Source: a virus
Taxonomy: Duplodnaviria > Heunggongvirae > Uroviricota > Caudoviricetes
Direction: 5' to 3' (one strand)
Virus record (IMG/VR): IMGVR_UViG_2617270974_000006
Length of the DNA: 4,861 bases
Shown here: positions 1 through 4,861 of the stretch, one piece after another
How the letters are laid out: every line of letters begins with the position of its first letter
Position numbering within the stretch: position 1 is the stretch's first letter
Translations under genes and position numbers: made by a program
The notes under the pieces: model-generated
Told to the model about the DNA's origin: nothing
Databases searched by the model: none
Seen by the model: the letters and a program-made list of their open reading frames with translations, nothing else

Positions 1-1
1 C

Positions 2-442
2 AGGTCTGCGGCAAGTAAGGCTCGCTGTGAGCATTGTGCTGGTACTGGATTTCATAATGTATTGCGCGAAGTGGTGAAACACTCCAGAAGCGGGGAGTCT
101 GTTATCAAGGAAGAGTGGGTGAAGGAACTATGTCAGCATTGTCATGGTAAGGGAGAAGTCAGCACAGCGTGCAGAGGGTGTAAGGGTAAAGGTATTGTCC
201 TGGATGAAAAAAGAACCCGGCTTCATGGCACGCCTGTTTATAAGATTTGTGGGCGTTGCAATGGAAACCGGTTTAGCCGTTTACCAACCACACTGGCGCG
301 GCTTCATGTCCAGAAGCTGGTACCAGACCTGACGGATTATCAGTGGTACAAAGGATATGCAGATGTCATTGATAAACTGGTTACAAAGTGCTGGCAGGAG
401 GAAGCTTACGCTGAAGCACAATTGAGAAGGGTGACGAGATAA
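2..442 (+). CDS. Putative late-gene antiterminator Q-like protein, 5'-partial, with DnaJ-type zinc-finger repeats
   Basis: Frame 2 is open from the first base of the window with no stop, so the TTG at 62 in the ORF track is not the real start. The translation (CEHCAGTG, CQHCHGKG, CRGCKGKG, CGRCNGN) carries four CxxCxGxG-type repeats. It lies immediately upstream of a short non-coding region ending in an intrinsic terminator and then a lysis cassette, which is where Q sits in lambdoid phages. The Q assignment is positional plus motif-based, not a verified homology. Confidence 0.45.
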   Translation, partial: RSAASKARCEHCAGTGFHNVLREVVKHSRSGESVIKEEWVKELCQHCHGKGEVSTACRGCKGKGIVLDEKRTRLHGTPVYKICGRCNGNRFSRLPTTLARLHVQKLVPDLTDYQWYKGYADVIDKLVTKCWQEEAYAEAQLRRVTR

Positions 443-550
443 GCGATTTTCGCCGAAGATAACGACATAATACTTGTGTTTCTCAAAAAATATGGATAAG
501 ATTTTCTCAACGATGGGGCTTGTGTATCTATCGTTGAACAATTTTTACGA

Positions 551-573
551 CCTCGCTATTGCGAGGTTTTTTT
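551..573 (+). terminator. Rho-independent terminator, tR'-like, downstream of Q
   Basis: Seen directly: stem CCTCGC (551-556), loop TATT, stem GCGAGG (561-566), then a 7-T run (567-573) and a second T run at 578-584. Lying about 110 bp after the Q stop, it matches the position of lambda tR'. Confidence 0.6.
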
Positions 574-610
574 ATGGTTTTTTTCTATTCAATCTACATC
601 AAAATCAATG

Positions 611-619
611 TGTTATAAT
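611..619 (+). promoter_or_regulatory. Extended -10 promoter element (TGnTATAAT) for the cargo cassette
   Basis: Seen directly: TGTTATAAT at 611-619, a perfect extended -10, about 38 bp upstream of the ATG at 657. No good -35 hexamer at 16-18 bp spacing, which extended -10 promoters tolerate. Downstream of the terminator at 551-573. Confidence 0.45.
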
Positions 620-656
620 GTTTTCTGTAAAACAACATTAAAGACAGGAGAACATT

Positions 657-926
657 ATGAAACTGACCTCTATCCATCTTGAAATACTACGTCGAGTGAA
701 TGAATTGCAGCCAAAGGATTCTAGAATTCAGGCTGCATCATTACCTCATCTCTCAGCAAAAGAGGTTAATTTTGCTATTTCAGATCTTGCTGATATAGGT
801 TTTATCGATGTTATACGAAGCAAATCTGCCGAAGGTGGATTGATTGCTAATGAGATAACGTCAAAAGGTTTTGCTTTTTTGAGTGAGATTGGCGCTGAAA
901 AAAATTCATCGATGAGCACTCATTGA
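657..926 (+). CDS. Hypothetical small protein (89 aa), predicted winged helix-turn-helix-like
   Basis: ATG at 657 with AGGAG at 646-650 (6-nt spacer), stop TGA at 924-926. AT-rich codon usage unlike the flanking phage genes. The pattern helix (IHLEILRRVNEL), helix (AKEVNFAISDLADIGFI), hairpin (DVIRSKS...LIANEITSKG), helix is compatible with a winged HTH. Fold assignment is inference from the primary sequence. Confidence 0.7.
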   Translation: MKLTSIHLEILRRVNELQPKDSRIQAASLPHLSAKEVNFAISDLADIGFIDVIRSKSAEGGLIANEITSKGFAFLSEIGAEKNSSMSTH

Positions 927-940
927 TTTCTGCTTCAATC

Positions 941-958
941 GGCTGCCAATTGGCAGCC
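941..958. repeat. Perfect 18-bp palindrome GGCTGCCAATTGGCAGCC (7-bp arms, AATT centre)
   Basis: Seen directly. It lies 15 bp after the stop of the 89-aa gene and is not followed by a T tract. A 15/18-identical copy (GGCTGCCAAATGGTGGCC) recurs at 1964-1981. Confidence 0.6.
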
Positions 959-1123
959 TAAACTGTAAAGTGAATTTAAAATCGCCTACAATTGATGCTT
1001 AAATTTTGTTCTGTATCATCTGCAGGTTTAGGGATATCACAGTAGCTTTCTGACAAGAAGAGTTCTTTTCTTCTACCAATGAAGTGGTTATGTTAACCTG
1101 CGCCAAATCGAGACTGGTGCGGA

Positions 1124-1930
1124 GTGGAATCGAAAGTGTCATATTTTTACAGAAGCAAGAATATTTCAGGTGTTTCTATAAATGAAGATAGCTTGATTAG
1201 CTTAAGCACGGCAATTGTCGAACGCTGCGTTAAAATGAATGAGCAAGCTCAAAAGGAAAGTAGGGAAGTTTGTGCTCAATGTGTTTTTTTTATTTTGTTC
1301 GATGGTAAGGGGTATAAAGTTGATTCTATCGGTGAGCTTGTGAAATACTTTAGACAGGCCACTAGGATTGATCAAATAATTTTTACTATTGAAACTTATC
1401 AAAGTCGACAGTCTAACAGGATGAATGGATCTTGGATGGAGCTACGAATTGATGAGAGGAATTCAAATAGCAGCACAATGATTGTAGCATCGGAAGATAA
1501 TGAGTGGGTTGACTCGTTATGGATTACGATTCAGGATTTACTTAACAAGTGCAAAAATAAATTTAGATTTTTTAGAACAGCTTGGACTATGTTAAGTATC
1601 CAGATTTCAGGTGTGACAGTTGGCTTTTTGCTTAGCTTATGGACAGCCTCAAAACTGGCGCCAAAACTATCAATCGATGGTGCATTTGCTTTATCATTTA
1701 TTTGTATCTTTATTTTGTTTTCGAACTTATGGAGCTTTGCTATTCCATTAATAATTAAGCTTATCGACTTTTTGTTTCCTAGTGTTAAGTTTGTTATTAA
1801 TGGTAAAAATTACTTTCACTGGAGTGTCCAGGCTATAATTGGAGCGATTGCCAGTGCGGTTATATTGTATTTTATTAGCTCCATGTTGCTTTTTGCATTA
1901 GAAATGTTAAATAGCATCATTAAGAAATAG
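1124..1930 (+). CDS. Hypothetical membrane protein (268 aa as drawn): soluble N-terminal domain plus three C-terminal TM helices
   Basis: ORF 1124-1930, stop TAG 1928-1930, strongly AT-rich. Hydrophobic segments WTMLSIQISGVTVGFLLSLWTA, GAFALSFICIFILFSNLWSFAIPLII and AIIGAIASAVILYFISSMLLFALEML suggest three TM helices in the last ~110 residues. No catalytic motif recognised in the N-terminal ~150 aa. The start is uncertain: GTG 1124, GTG 1136 (GGAG at 1121-1124) or ATG about 1234. Confidence 0.7.
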   Translation: MESKVSYFYRSKNISGVSINEDSLISLSTAIVERCVKMNEQAQKESREVCAQCVFFILFDGKGYKVDSIGELVKYFRQATRIDQIIFTIETYQSRQSNRMNGSWMELRIDERNSNSSTMIVASEDNEWVDSLWITIQDLLNKCKNKFRFFRTAWTMLSIQISGVTVGFLLSLWTASKLAPKLSIDGAFALSFICIFILFSNLWSFAIPLIIKLIDFLFPSVKFVINGKNYFHWSVQAIIGAIASAVILYFISSMLLFALEMLNSIIKK

Positions 1931-1963
1931 TTAATGAATTAGTTATAATTACATCAATTCTAT

Positions 1964-1987
1964 GGCTGCCAAATGGTGGCCTTTTTT
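1964..1987 (+). terminator. Candidate intrinsic terminator closing the cargo cassette
   Basis: Seen directly: GGCTGCC (1964-1970), loop AAAT, GGTGGCC (1975-1981) gives a 7-bp stem with two G-U wobble pairs, followed by TTTTTT (1982-1987). It lies 34 bp after the stop of the membrane-protein gene. Confidence 0.5.
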
Positions 1988-1990
1988 ATT

Positions 1991-2014
1991 CCTCTCATTT
2001 CTATTTCTGAGAGG
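1991..2014. other. Inverted repeat CCTCTCA-N10-TGAGAGG upstream of the first holin-like gene
   Basis: Seen directly: 7-bp perfect arms at 1991-1997 and 2008-2014 with a 10-nt loop, no T tract after it. It lies between the candidate terminator and the RBS of the first lysis gene. Confidence 0.35.
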
Positions 2015-2038: not shown

Positions 2039-2425
2039 ATGTCCGATCCGATTTCCGGCACAGGATTAGCTGGTGGAGCCCTAACGGGCGCTAGTATTTA
2101 TGGACTGCTGACCGGAACTGATTACGGCGTTGTTTTTGGCGCATTTGCAGGGGCTGTATTCTATATAGCAACAGCAGCAGATCTGAGTGCATCGCGCCGA
2201 CTGGCATATTTTATCGTGTCATATATTGCTGGGATCCTTTGCTCTGGATTGGTTGGCTCCAAGCTGGCAAACTTGACCGGATACAGTGATAAACCTCTGG
2301 ATGCTATTGGTGCCGTAATCGTCTCTGCTTTAGCCGTTAAAATCCTGACGTTCCTGAATAATCAGGATATCGGCTCGCTGGGGGCGCTCATAACGCGCCG
2401 GGGAGGGTCAGGTGGAGCTAAATGA
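2039..2425 (+). CDS. Putative holin (128 aa, glycine-rich, 3-4 TM segments)
   Basis: ATG at 2039 preceded by GAGGTGG (2029-2035), taken in preference to the upstream in-frame track start at 1973. Stop TGA at 2423-2425. Small, multi-TM, with a charged C-terminal tail, and first gene of the lysis cluster directly upstream of the endolysin. Holin assignment is positional and compositional. Confidence 0.6.
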   Translation: MSDPISGTGLAGGALTGASIYGLLTGTDYGVVFGAFAGAVFYIATAADLSASRRLAYFIVSYIAGILCSGLVGSKLANLTGYSDKPLDAIGAVIVSALAVKILTFLNNQDIGSLGALITRRGGSGGAK

Positions 2426-2693
2426 CCCGACAGCAACTATTAATGCGCTGTTATGTGCTTGTGTTGTTATTACTCTGATGTTTTATCGTCGTGGTGATTC
2501 GCGGCATCGTCCGTGGGTTTCACGTTTAGCCTGGCTGATTACTGTTACATACAGTGCTGTTCCGTTGGCCTATCTCTGTGGGATTTATCCCCATTCCTCA
2601 TGGCCCATTATCGTGGCGAACACTATTTTTCTTTCCGTGCTGGTGGCTGTCAGAGGCAACGTTGCACGTCTGGTTGATCATCTGAGGCACTAA
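2412..2693 (+). CDS. Second small membrane protein of the lysis cassette (93 aa), holin or antiholin-like
   Basis: GTG at 2412 preceded by GGGAGG (2401-2406, 5-nt spacer), overlapping the end of the previous gene by 14 nt. Two to three hydrophobic segments. Its stop TAA overlaps the endolysin ATG as TAATG at 2691-2695. Function inferred from position only. Confidence 0.5.
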   Translation: MELNDPTATINALLCACVVITLMFYRRGDSRHRPWVSRLAWLITVTYSAVPLAYLCGIYPHSSWPIIVANTIFLSVLVAVRGNVARLVDHLRH

Positions 2694-3303
2694 TGAACCA
2701 ACAATTATTTCAAAAGGCGGCTGGTATTAGCGCCGGGCTGGCTGCGCGCTGGTTTCCGCACATTGATGCGGCGATGAAGGAATTCGGCATTACAGTACCA
2801 GCGGATCAGGCAATGTTTATCGCTCAGGTAGGCCATGAGTCGATGGGGTTTAGCGCCGTAGTTGAAAATTTTAACTACACACCATCTGCGCTTGTGGCGA
2901 CGTTCGGAAAGAGGATCACACAGCAGCAGGCTGATGCCCTTGGCAGAACATCCGGACATGCAGCTCGTCAGGATGCTATTGCCAATCTGGTGTATAGCAA
3001 CCGACTGGGTAACAAAGCACCAGGTGATGGCTGGAAATATCGTGGTAGAGGATTAATTCAAATCACTGGCCTCCATAATTATCGCATCTGTGGCGCGGCG
3101 CTGAAGTTAGATCTGGTGACTTCACCTGAACAACTGGAACAGGAGCTACAGGCCGCGCGCTCAGCTGCATGGTTCTACACCTCTAAAGGTTGCATGGTCT
3201 ACGGTGCCGATATTAATCGTGTTACGCGCATCATTAACGGCGGTCTGAACGGTATTGAGGATCGTAAGGTTCGATACAACAAGGCGCGGGCGGCGCTGCT
3301 GGT

Positions 3304-3307
<4 letters not shown>
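2693..3307 (+). CDS. Endolysin, glycoside hydrolase family 19 (chitinase-like lysozyme)
   Basis: 204 aa. The N-terminal region resembles phage GH19 endolysins as recalled from Salmonella and E. coli phages, with two Glu nine residues apart (E49 in GHES and E58 in VVENF by my count) as candidate catalytic acid and base. GAGG RBS at 2684-2687. Sits between the holin-like genes and the Rz-like gene. Confidence 0.85.

Positions 3308-4861
<1,554 letters not shown>

Follow-up and report, generated by a model that had tools for sequence, protein, structure and literature searches.

The RexB protein of lambda, a prophage-encoded inner-membrane protein, is expressed in the lysogen and is thought to collapse the membrane potential upon infection. 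A prophage cargo cassette is the classical place and form of superinfection exclusion (Sie) genes, and proteins of the P22 SieA/SieB and T4 Imm type are small membrane proteins whose accessory genes are carried by prophages and have a promoter and a terminator of their own. In effectors of the CBASS 2TM/4TM, PycTM, SAVED-TM and SLATT types, a cytoplasmic signal-binding domain is joined to a few transmembrane (TM) helices, and the protein kills by membrane disruption. Lambdoid prophages, in turn, carry additional genes (morons) between Q and the lysis genes, as compositionally foreign inserts 3' of Q, pR' and tR' that have their own terminator; for example, the stx genes are placed in the late region 3' of Q under pR', according to PMC6266700. 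We report here on a gene that recalls each of these systems. It lies at positions 1136-1930 of a 4,861-nucleotide (nt) stretch of viral DNA (IMG/VR record IMGVR_UViG_2617270974_000006; hereafter the window), which is the late-region junction of an Escherichia coli lambdoid prophage with an e14-like early region and a contractile tail, and it encodes a membrane protein of 264 amino acids (aa).

The reading that we favor, with a rough probability of 0.4, is that the lysogen expresses this protein as a self-contained effector of phage exclusion or abortive infection, acting on the membrane in a mode like that attributed to RexB. This reading is supported circumstantially by a fixed, stand-alone architecture, the moron anatomy of the locus, the use of the same slot in three prophage backbones, and the presence of defense or toxin-antitoxin (TA) genes beside relatives in independent lineages. 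It is further supported by relatives in attC-like cassette arrays and by conserved polar residues inside the first two TM helices.

Results

The target gene and its start codon

The gene under study (the target gene) was delimited as follows.

1136-1930, plus strand: target gene, 264-aa membrane protein; GTG start, TAG stop at 1928-1930; match to phrog_30208 (E=8.5e-162)

The longest form of this open reading frame (ORF) runs from GTG 1124 to 1930 on the plus strand and has 268 codons, exactly as an earlier, sequence-only reading had described it. A run of 268 stop-free codons has a chance probability of ~1.3e-9 at 35% GC. Relative to a 78%-identical homologue in another prophage (locus L009), the synonymous divergence (dS) is 0.74 and the nonsynonymous divergence (dN) 0.12, with a dN/dS of 0.16. 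The ORF is a real, conserved gene.

Three start codons had been considered, and all three do exist, but the choice among them can be made: the true start is GTG 1136, rather than GTG 1124 or ATG 1235. Distant homologues begin with the pattern M-A-x-F/Y-L-R-D (MAxFLRDQ...) at the codon aligned with GTG 1136, the homologue in L005 has an ATG at this very position, and RefSeq/PGAP also places the start at 1136 (WP_001459463.1, 264 aa). ATG 1235, where the PHROG starts, yields too short a protein, because the residues ahead of Met38 are conserved and well modeled, forming the first strands and a helix with a predicted local distance difference test (pLDDT) score of ~90. All 231 positions of the phrog_30208 profile (1-231) match aa 38-268 in the 268-aa numbering; this model, which carries no functional annotation, thus begins at Met38 and is without the conserved first 33 residues. 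Whatever the function of the protein, these two practical corrections hold: translation starts at GTG 1136, and the PHROG model lacks the N-terminus of the protein. As the closest Shine-Dalgarno-like sequence, GGAG (1120-1123), is located 12 nt 5' of GTG 1136, initiation of translation looks weak.

Architecture of the predicted protein

The predicted parts of the protein are listed below; residues are numbered from GTG 1136, and AF2 denotes the AlphaFold2 model.

1136-1555, plus strand: predicted cytoplasmic alpha/beta domain, aa 1-140; a beta-sheet against three helices (residues 1-138) in AF2
1580-1666, plus strand: TM helix 1 (TM1), aa 149-177 in AF2; conserved Q156, G159 and S167
1682-1774, plus strand: TM helix 2 (TM2), aa 183-213 in AF2; family signature F188 and F-S196-N197-x-W199
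1775-1819, plus strand: predicted cytoplasmic loop between TM2 and TM3; near-invariant FP215xxxF219 motif, net charge +1.7
1820-1924, plus strand: TM helix 3 (TM3), aa 229-263 in AF2; starts at conserved W229, least conserved helix

A soluble N-terminal part followed by three TM segments had been proposed from the sequence, and hydropathy and AF2 agree on this layout, the three TM helices occupying the final ~115 residues. Hydrophilic sequence extends over the first ~145 residues; Kyte-Doolittle windows exceed 1.6 at residues 179-225 and 233-266, and a weaker one lies at ~152-175. The AF2 model, built from a 27-sequence alignment, is confident (mean pLDDT 87.7, predicted template modeling score 0.72). 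A Foldseek search of PDB and BFVD with it found no neighbor below E=0.02, nor did profile searches of PDB sequences give a match. For the N-terminal domain, a TBP-like or AdoMetDC-like alpha+beta fold is a candidate. The sequence-only reading had recognized no nucleotide-binding, nuclease or protease signature, and the Pfam, NCBIfam and PADLOC scans and the fold comparison likewise returned no significant match.

The model and the charge distribution point to an inner-membrane protein with its N-terminus in and its C-terminus out. Over 101 homologues, the net charge is +2.4 before TM1, about neutral in the TM1-TM2 loop and +1.7 in the TM2-TM3 loop, a positive-inside pattern which argues for a cytoplasmic location of the ~140-aa domain. 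A basic stretch, KCKNKFRFFR, directly precedes TM1. Almost nothing is predicted to face the periplasm, the exposed parts being a loop of ~10 residues and a tail of at most 8.

Conservation is equal in the N-terminal domain and the TM module (1.81 versus 1.83 bits). In the sheet, the most conserved elements are the IRFDxKGY motif (ILFDGKGY here), G98 and D106; D56, G59, A75 and W124 are further conserved positions of this domain. The conserved polar residues at mid-membrane in TM1 and TM2 suggest a specific TM assembly, beyond a mere anchor, while the helical conservation moments of TM1 and TM2 were not significant. Two residue pairs are near-invariant in the family, D7/R54 being kept in 93 of the 101 sequences and E79/R80 in 80. 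In the target protein, D7, R54 and E79-R80 are jointly replaced (by S, L and D-Q, respectively), and other enterobacterial prophage copies have replaced them differently. Such replacements might reflect the loss of a salt bridge or a site, or else a change in specificity.

A cargo cassette in a variable slot

The target gene is contained in a compositionally distinct insert, the elements of which are as follows.

572-2002, plus strand: low-GC cargo (moron) cassette, 1.43 kb, between tR' and the holin gene; GC 30-38% versus 47-57% in the flanks
611-619, plus strand: extended -10-like element TGTTATAAT, read from the sequence, 5' of the winged-helix ORF; candidate cassette promoter
657-926, plus strand: 89-aa winged-helix-like ORF, first cassette gene; match to phrog_32916 (E=2.9e-61), weak DUF2513/HTH_45 matches below the cut-off
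941-958, no strand assigned: 18-nt perfect palindrome GGCTGCCAATTGGCAGCC after the winged-helix ORF, with no T-tract; RNA fold -14.9 kcal/mol, z -5.5
992-1019, plus strand: promoter-like TTGATG-16-TATCAT, 9/12 matches, a chance-frequency pattern outside the conserved leader
1087-1135, plus strand: conserved leader of ~50 nt, from a DNA alignment of the window, L009, L037 and L005
1964-1990, plus strand: intrinsic terminator of the target gene, inside the cassette; 7-bp stem followed by TTTTTT, z -2.9

In blastn comparisons, the window aligns with two sister prophages (L039 and L040) at 91-96% identity, over 1-571 and from 2003/2007 to 2700. They have the same Q and lysis genes, with other cargo in the slot, coding for proteins of 85 aa (L039 893-1150) and 213 aa (L040 1215-1856), neither of which has a Pfam or PADLOC match. 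Given backbone breakpoints at 571/2003 and different cargo in the sisters, the slot is a variable one, occupied here by the cargo cassette 572-2002. This cassette has features of a moron in the sense of Hendrix and Juhala, being inserted between genes that adjoin in related phages, differing in base composition and having its own terminator, with sequence candidates for a promoter of its own.

This terminator is kept after the L009 homologue (L009 8863-8884), and together with the leader it accompanies the gene, both being conserved beside the 78%-identical homologue in L009/L037. Separate control of the gene, as suggested by the sequence-only reading, is borne out insofar as the gene is an insulated unit, with a conserved terminator of its own in a low-GC cassette. 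The terminator probably insulates the holin gene from cassette transcription, as would be expected of cargo transcribed in the lysogen, because such transcription must not read into the lysis genes. In the established model of lambda late transcription, polymerase modified by Q ignores terminators.

The spacer that follows the winged-helix ORF has the length first given, 197 bp, if counted to GTG 1124, and 209 bp to the true start. A sigma70 promoter had been proposed at 992-1019 within it. The pattern is present, but promoter-like matches occur in the region at the frequency expected by chance (6 versus 5.5 +/- 2.1 in shuffles), and this one lies outside the conserved leader. The leader itself holds a -10-like TATGTT (1089-1094), which reads TGtTATGCT in L009, as well as the distant GGAG mentioned above; a hairpin at 1096-1125 in the leader was not significant (z -1.4) and had no covariation. 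TGTTATAAT was not reported by the two-hexamer scan because its -35 is poor.

The winged-helix ORF has a good ribosome-binding site and is specific to this cassette; it adjoins none of the other target homologues' loci. Its pairing with the target gene was rejected, as it is unrelated to the ORFs upstream of the homologues in L003 and L005. The winged-helix protein of L003 was likewise rejected as a partner, for it is the partner of a TumE toxin. Candidate roles for GGCTGCCAATTGGCAGCC are an operator, a partial terminator or an RNA stabilizer. This palindrome shares 84% identity with the terminator stem of the target gene (1964-1982), and a 17-mer containing TTATAAT occurs both before the winged-helix ORF (603-619) and after the target gene (1933-1949). 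These likenesses may be traces of modular cassette assembly or shared regulatory sites.

Genomic contexts of the relatives

The gene directly precedes the holin gene in at least three lambdoid prophage backbones, whose Q proteins belong to different families.

Window: Q of family PF03589, holin of family Holin_8
L005 and L006: Q of family PF06530, holin of family Holin_2_1 (L005; the L006 contig ends ahead of the holin)
L009, L037 and L046: Q of family PF06323, holin of family Holin_8

The distance from gene to holin is 108 bp here and 110-160 bp in L005, L009 and L046. The Q-holin slot of L005 also carries, adjoining the homologue, PDC-M11A/B (436-1849, minus strand; PADLOC E=1e-131 and 6e-49), which PADLOC lists as a candidate defense pair. 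Directly 5' of the homologue, a related type II-like N6/N4 DNA methyltransferase gene was found in two protein lineages and two prophage backbones, at these positions:

L006 2541-3614: N6/N4 DNA methyltransferase
L009 6886-7941: N6/N4 DNA methyltransferase
L037 4856-5911: N6/N4 DNA methyltransferase
L046 6760-7806: N6/N4 DNA methyltransferase

An apparent remnant of the upstream methyltransferase was also seen in L007. The methyltransferase and the membrane protein may be functionally linked.

Defense and TA genes were found beside several other relatives. For example, the homologue in L044 is directly 3' of AbiEi/AbiEii, with RelB/YafQ nearby, and DUF6088/AbiEii is near the homologue in L049. 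A GmrSD_N-HEPN pair and a TumE/HVO_A0114 TA pair adjoin it in L003, and a SocA_Panacea TA pair does so in L050. Homologues are also located 3' of HigBA-like genes (L018) and of ParE (L024). In L042, a Bacteroidota conjugative element carries the homologue in its cargo region, with a TIR_2 gene ~6 kb away.

A third kind of context is an array. Imperfect attC-like palindromes of ~45-70 nt, with AAC...GTT cores, lie 6-10 nt past the stop codon of six homologues, as listed below; those of L066 and L075 are less clear. The sites vary in length and were folded one by one as single-stranded DNA, with the z values given for each.

L014 6805-6860: attC-like site, z -3.1
L017 6805-6868: attC-like site, z -5.1
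L058 1214-1272: attC-like site, z -1.2
L061 1722-1795: attC-like site, z -4.2
L063 1997-2086: attC-like site, z -2.6
L072 4805-4888: attC-like site, z -1.5

The homologues so flanked sit in runs of small ORFs on the same strand, and a neighbor in L014 matches the Pfam 'Integron cassette protein'. From the palindromes and ORF arrays, these environmental copies look like integron-type cassettes, akin to clusters of attC sites lacking integron-integrases (CALIN); no integrase gene (intI) was seen at these loci. The copy in the window is followed by a plain terminator, not an attC-like site. Phage-defense genes are reported among the cargo of integron cassettes (10.1101/2024.07.02.601719; PMC12614218).

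No conserved partner emerged from an all-against-all BLAST comparison of neighbors or from Pfam scans of 86 and 73 neighbor ORFs. In the absence of a recurrent neighbor family, the target protein acts alone, whatever its function.

Size and distribution of the family

While a word-indexed search retrieved only 9 clusters, an exhaustive hidden Markov model (HMM) search of 1.84 billion representatives retrieved 230 clusters (defined at 50% identity) at E<=1e-3, 127 of them at E<=1e-30. Among the matches listed, nearly all are 255-272 aa long and align end to end; the exceptions have linker insertions, a few N-terminal extensions, and one truncated copy. Two variants of 374 aa (L090 3329-4453 and L091 426-1550) have an extra beta-rich N-terminal extension of ~130 aa, and a 195-aa copy without the TM module (L081 3118-3705) is probably a frameshifted pseudogene. 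A profile of the N-terminal domain alone, searched with low yield against a 5.8-billion set, returned nothing beyond fragments of this E. coli protein, which provides no evidence that either domain pairs with other domains.

Named hosts comprise Methylobacter, Gallionella, Thiobacillus, Methyloversatilis, Thiomicrorhabdus, Moraxellaceae, Methylophilaceae, Nitrospira and Bacteroidota. In the Pfam, PADLOC, PHROGs and NCBIfam scans, phrog_30208 was the only known family to contain the target. Pfam and PADLOC have no model for the target or the 101 homologues, and NCBIfam has none for the target or three relatives; in PADLOC-DB v2.0.0, the target had 0 matches at E<=1, and weak matches were scattered among the 101 homologues. 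A literature search found nothing on WP_001459463.1 or on the family. The family is thus sparse, widely scattered and previously undescribed, always keeps its whole architecture, and is without detectable relatives by sequence or fold.

Prophage backbone and lysis region

The genes and signals that flank the cassette are those of a lambdoid late region.

1-442, plus strand: late antiterminator Q, 3' part; Pfam Antiterm PF03589 (E=7.3e-31), phrog_127; backbone, outside the cassette
549-575, plus strand: tR'-like intrinsic terminator 3' of Q; 8-bp stem and T-run, RNA fold -13.7 kcal/mol, z -5.3
2039-2425, plus strand: holin; Pfam Phage_holin_8 (2.9e-34), PHROGs holin
2412-2693, plus strand: second holin; Pfam Phage_holin_3_7 (7.3e-20), PHROGs holin
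2693-3307, plus strand: GH19 endolysin; Pfam Glyco_hydro_19, PHROGs endolysin

The RefSeq 'antitermination protein' ends at the same position (442) in L001. The tR'-like terminator is the final backbone element ahead of the cassette, and the homology to the sister prophages ends at 571. For the first holin, the mechanical ORF (1973-2425, 150 aa) overlaps the terminator of the target gene, and the annotated, HMM-supported start is ATG 2039 (128 aa).

Downstream of the endolysin gene, an Rz-like spanin gene (3304-3633) is interrupted by the IS3-family insertion sequence (IS) ISEc31 (~3606-4861), leaving a truncated Rz of 109 aa, so that this copy of the prophage probably has an impaired lysis cassette. 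The Rz/ISEc31 junction is present in no complete E. coli genome of the collection. Transposase orfA of ISEc31 begins at 3690. A strong Rfam match to isrC, an Hfq-binding small RNA (3686-3808; 150 bits, E=1e-37), falls within the IS and overlaps the start of orfA; it was the sole match when known RNAs were sought across the window.

Of 5,426 complete E. coli genomes, 41 contain the stretch 450-2040 at full length and >=99.7% identity, always on the chromosome and within an apparently complete prophage. In RefSeq, both island genes of these copies are annotated as 'hypothetical protein'. Salmonella and Shigella are also recorded for members of the target's 90% protein cluster.

Discussion

A possible membrane effector of the lysogen

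If the target protein is an exclusion or abortive-infection effector, its action may be pictured as follows. A cassette promoter would drive transcription of the gene in the lysogen, and the terminator would keep this transcription off the lysis genes until induction, when Q-modified polymerase would read through. The protein would be self-sufficient, with the cytoplasmic domain detecting a cue of infection. The TM module would then oligomerize or open and so dissipate membrane integrity or potential, a step in which the conserved mid-membrane polar residues (Q156, S167, S196/N197 and W199) would take part, and the superinfecting phage would be stopped. Lysogen expression, sensing, oligomerization and membrane damage are the parts of this reading that we infer. 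A sensor-plus-pore effector had already been suggested from the sequence; the suggestion fits the absent partner, the cytoplasmic N-terminal domain and the defense and TA neighbors, with membrane disruption as its presumptive part.

Several observations weigh against such an effector. The cassette promoters are sequence candidates only (TGTTATAAT at 611-619, 1089-1094 and 992-1019), and formation of a pore would require oligomerization, itself a presumed step. There is no homology to any validated defense protein in PADLOC, Pfam or NCBIfam, and neither 50,697 deposited phage genomes nor 72,556 plasmids contained a homologue. Genomic context gives a mixed signal, in that housekeeping genes (such as sdh, recG, ABC transporters and nuo) are the neighbors at most of the 13 GTDB loci. 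Moreover, the enterobacterial prophage clade has lost D7/R54/E79-R80, and its activity may differ from that of the rest of the family.

A bolder form of the same idea is doubtful, if possible. In this form, the family would be a novel anti-phage system of one protein, with a TBP-like cytoplasmic sensor hard-wired to an oligomeric pore of three TM helices. With no partner genes, it would spread as minimal cargo via at least four vehicles (the lambdoid Q-holin slot, integron-type arrays, conjugative elements and defense islands) across Proteobacteria, Nitrospirota and Bacteroidota.

Alternative functions

The housekeeping neighbors bring up an unlikely but serious alternative, namely that the protein has a conversion or housekeeping-like membrane function, for example as a small regulated channel, a transporter subunit or an envelope-stress factor, which rides mobile elements and benefits the host independently of phages. 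Many homologues indeed stand alone among core metabolic genes, in free-living Beta- and Gammaproteobacteria and Nitrospira. The conserved polar residues of TM1 and TM2 would suit an ion path or helix packing, and a cytoplasmic alpha/beta domain with C-terminal TM helices is a CorA-like architecture, although CorA-like proteins appeared as non-significant fold matches only. On the other hand, the family is rare and its distribution very patchy; it recurs in prophage slots, a conjugative element, attC-like arrays and beside Abi and TA genes, and it is linked to no operon of defined physiology.

An inner-membrane protein encoded in a prophage cargo cassette with its own terminator might instead exclude superinfecting phages by blocking entry of their genome at the inner membrane, as do T4 Imm, P22 SieA and HK97 gp15, so that the cells survive. 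This is rather improbable, because almost nothing of the protein is periplasmic and the conserved 140-aa domain is predicted to be cytoplasmic. In addition, homologues occur in chromosomes and cassette arrays without a prophage, and no homology to SieA or SieB was found. A protein of the SieA/RexB type had been among the earlier suggestions; membership of that type is rejected on the profile comparison, which gave an hhalign probability of 10.5% or less for RexB, RexA, SieA and SieB.

The position of the gene has a different implication for lysis, as a multi-TM protein whose gene immediately precedes the holin gene in every prophage copy, and whose transcription by Q-antiterminated polymerase is inferred from this position, could be an antiholin or holin modulator that is expressed with the late operon and adjusts the timing of lysis. 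We consider this a poor prospect, and the earlier suggestion of an accessory lysis regulator is weakened accordingly: an intrinsic terminator conserved with the gene stands between it and the holin gene, sister prophages with identical lysis genes carry unrelated cargo in the same slot, and most family members are without nearby lysis genes. No holin or antiholin family matched the target, and only 1 of the 101 homologues gave a chance-level match to Phage_holin_3_3 (E=0.019).

Finally, although the winged-helix ORF lies immediately upstream in the same cassette, with a perfect palindrome as a possible operator between the two genes, it is very improbable that the target protein is the membrane toxin of an addiction or TA-like pair that stabilizes the prophage with the 89-aa protein as repressor or antitoxin, given that this protein is beside no other homologue (where a methyltransferase, unrelated genes or nothing is found upstream), that the winged-helix protein of L003 belongs to the TumE TA pair, that a 209-bp spacer does not resemble the arrangement of coupled type II TA genes, and that a fixed 140-aa cytoplasmic domain is atypical of small membrane toxins.

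Implications

Should the target protein be a defense or exclusion effector, it would represent a compact (0.8-kb), partner-free membrane system overlooked by PADLOC, Pfam and NCBIfam, and a clean case of one gene moving among prophage slots, attC-type cassettes, conjugative elements and defense islands. If it is not a defense protein, it is still a confidently modeled fold without a solved relative. The Q-holin interval of e14/lambdoid E. coli prophages is, in either case, a place to seek further unannotated cargo.

Comparison with known systems

The profile of 101 sequences that represents the family in the hhalign comparisons has no sequence relationship to RexB or RexA of lambda (probability 0.8% and 0.2%, respectively). 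RexB is a 144-aa protein with four TM helices and requires a separate cytoplasmic sensor, RexA, whereas in the target a cytoplasmic domain is fused to three TM helices, and a RexA-like partner gene is conserved at no locus examined. The locus also differs, Rex being encoded in the immunity region and the target in the Q-holin slot.

For P22 SieA, the probability of 10.5% comes from a TM-only stretch of 55 columns, and SieB gave 0.25%. Proteins of the SieA, SieB and T4 Imm type are without a conserved 140-aa cytoplasmic domain, T4 Imm being set apart by description only. As for the TM effectors of signaling systems, the target has no PADLOC or Pfam match to them, and sporadic weak matches, driven by TM segments, were confined to 1-2 of the 101 homologues. 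No cyclase or other signal generator lies beside any homologue, the only TIR_2 gene being that of L042.

The closest parallel in anatomy is with the stx-type morons, from which the target cassette differs in that its cargo is a membrane protein and not a toxin, and in that its own promoter is a candidate only. Undescribed as the family itself is, and missing from the defense catalogues, a prophage moron with a probably protective membrane protein is of a familiar kind.

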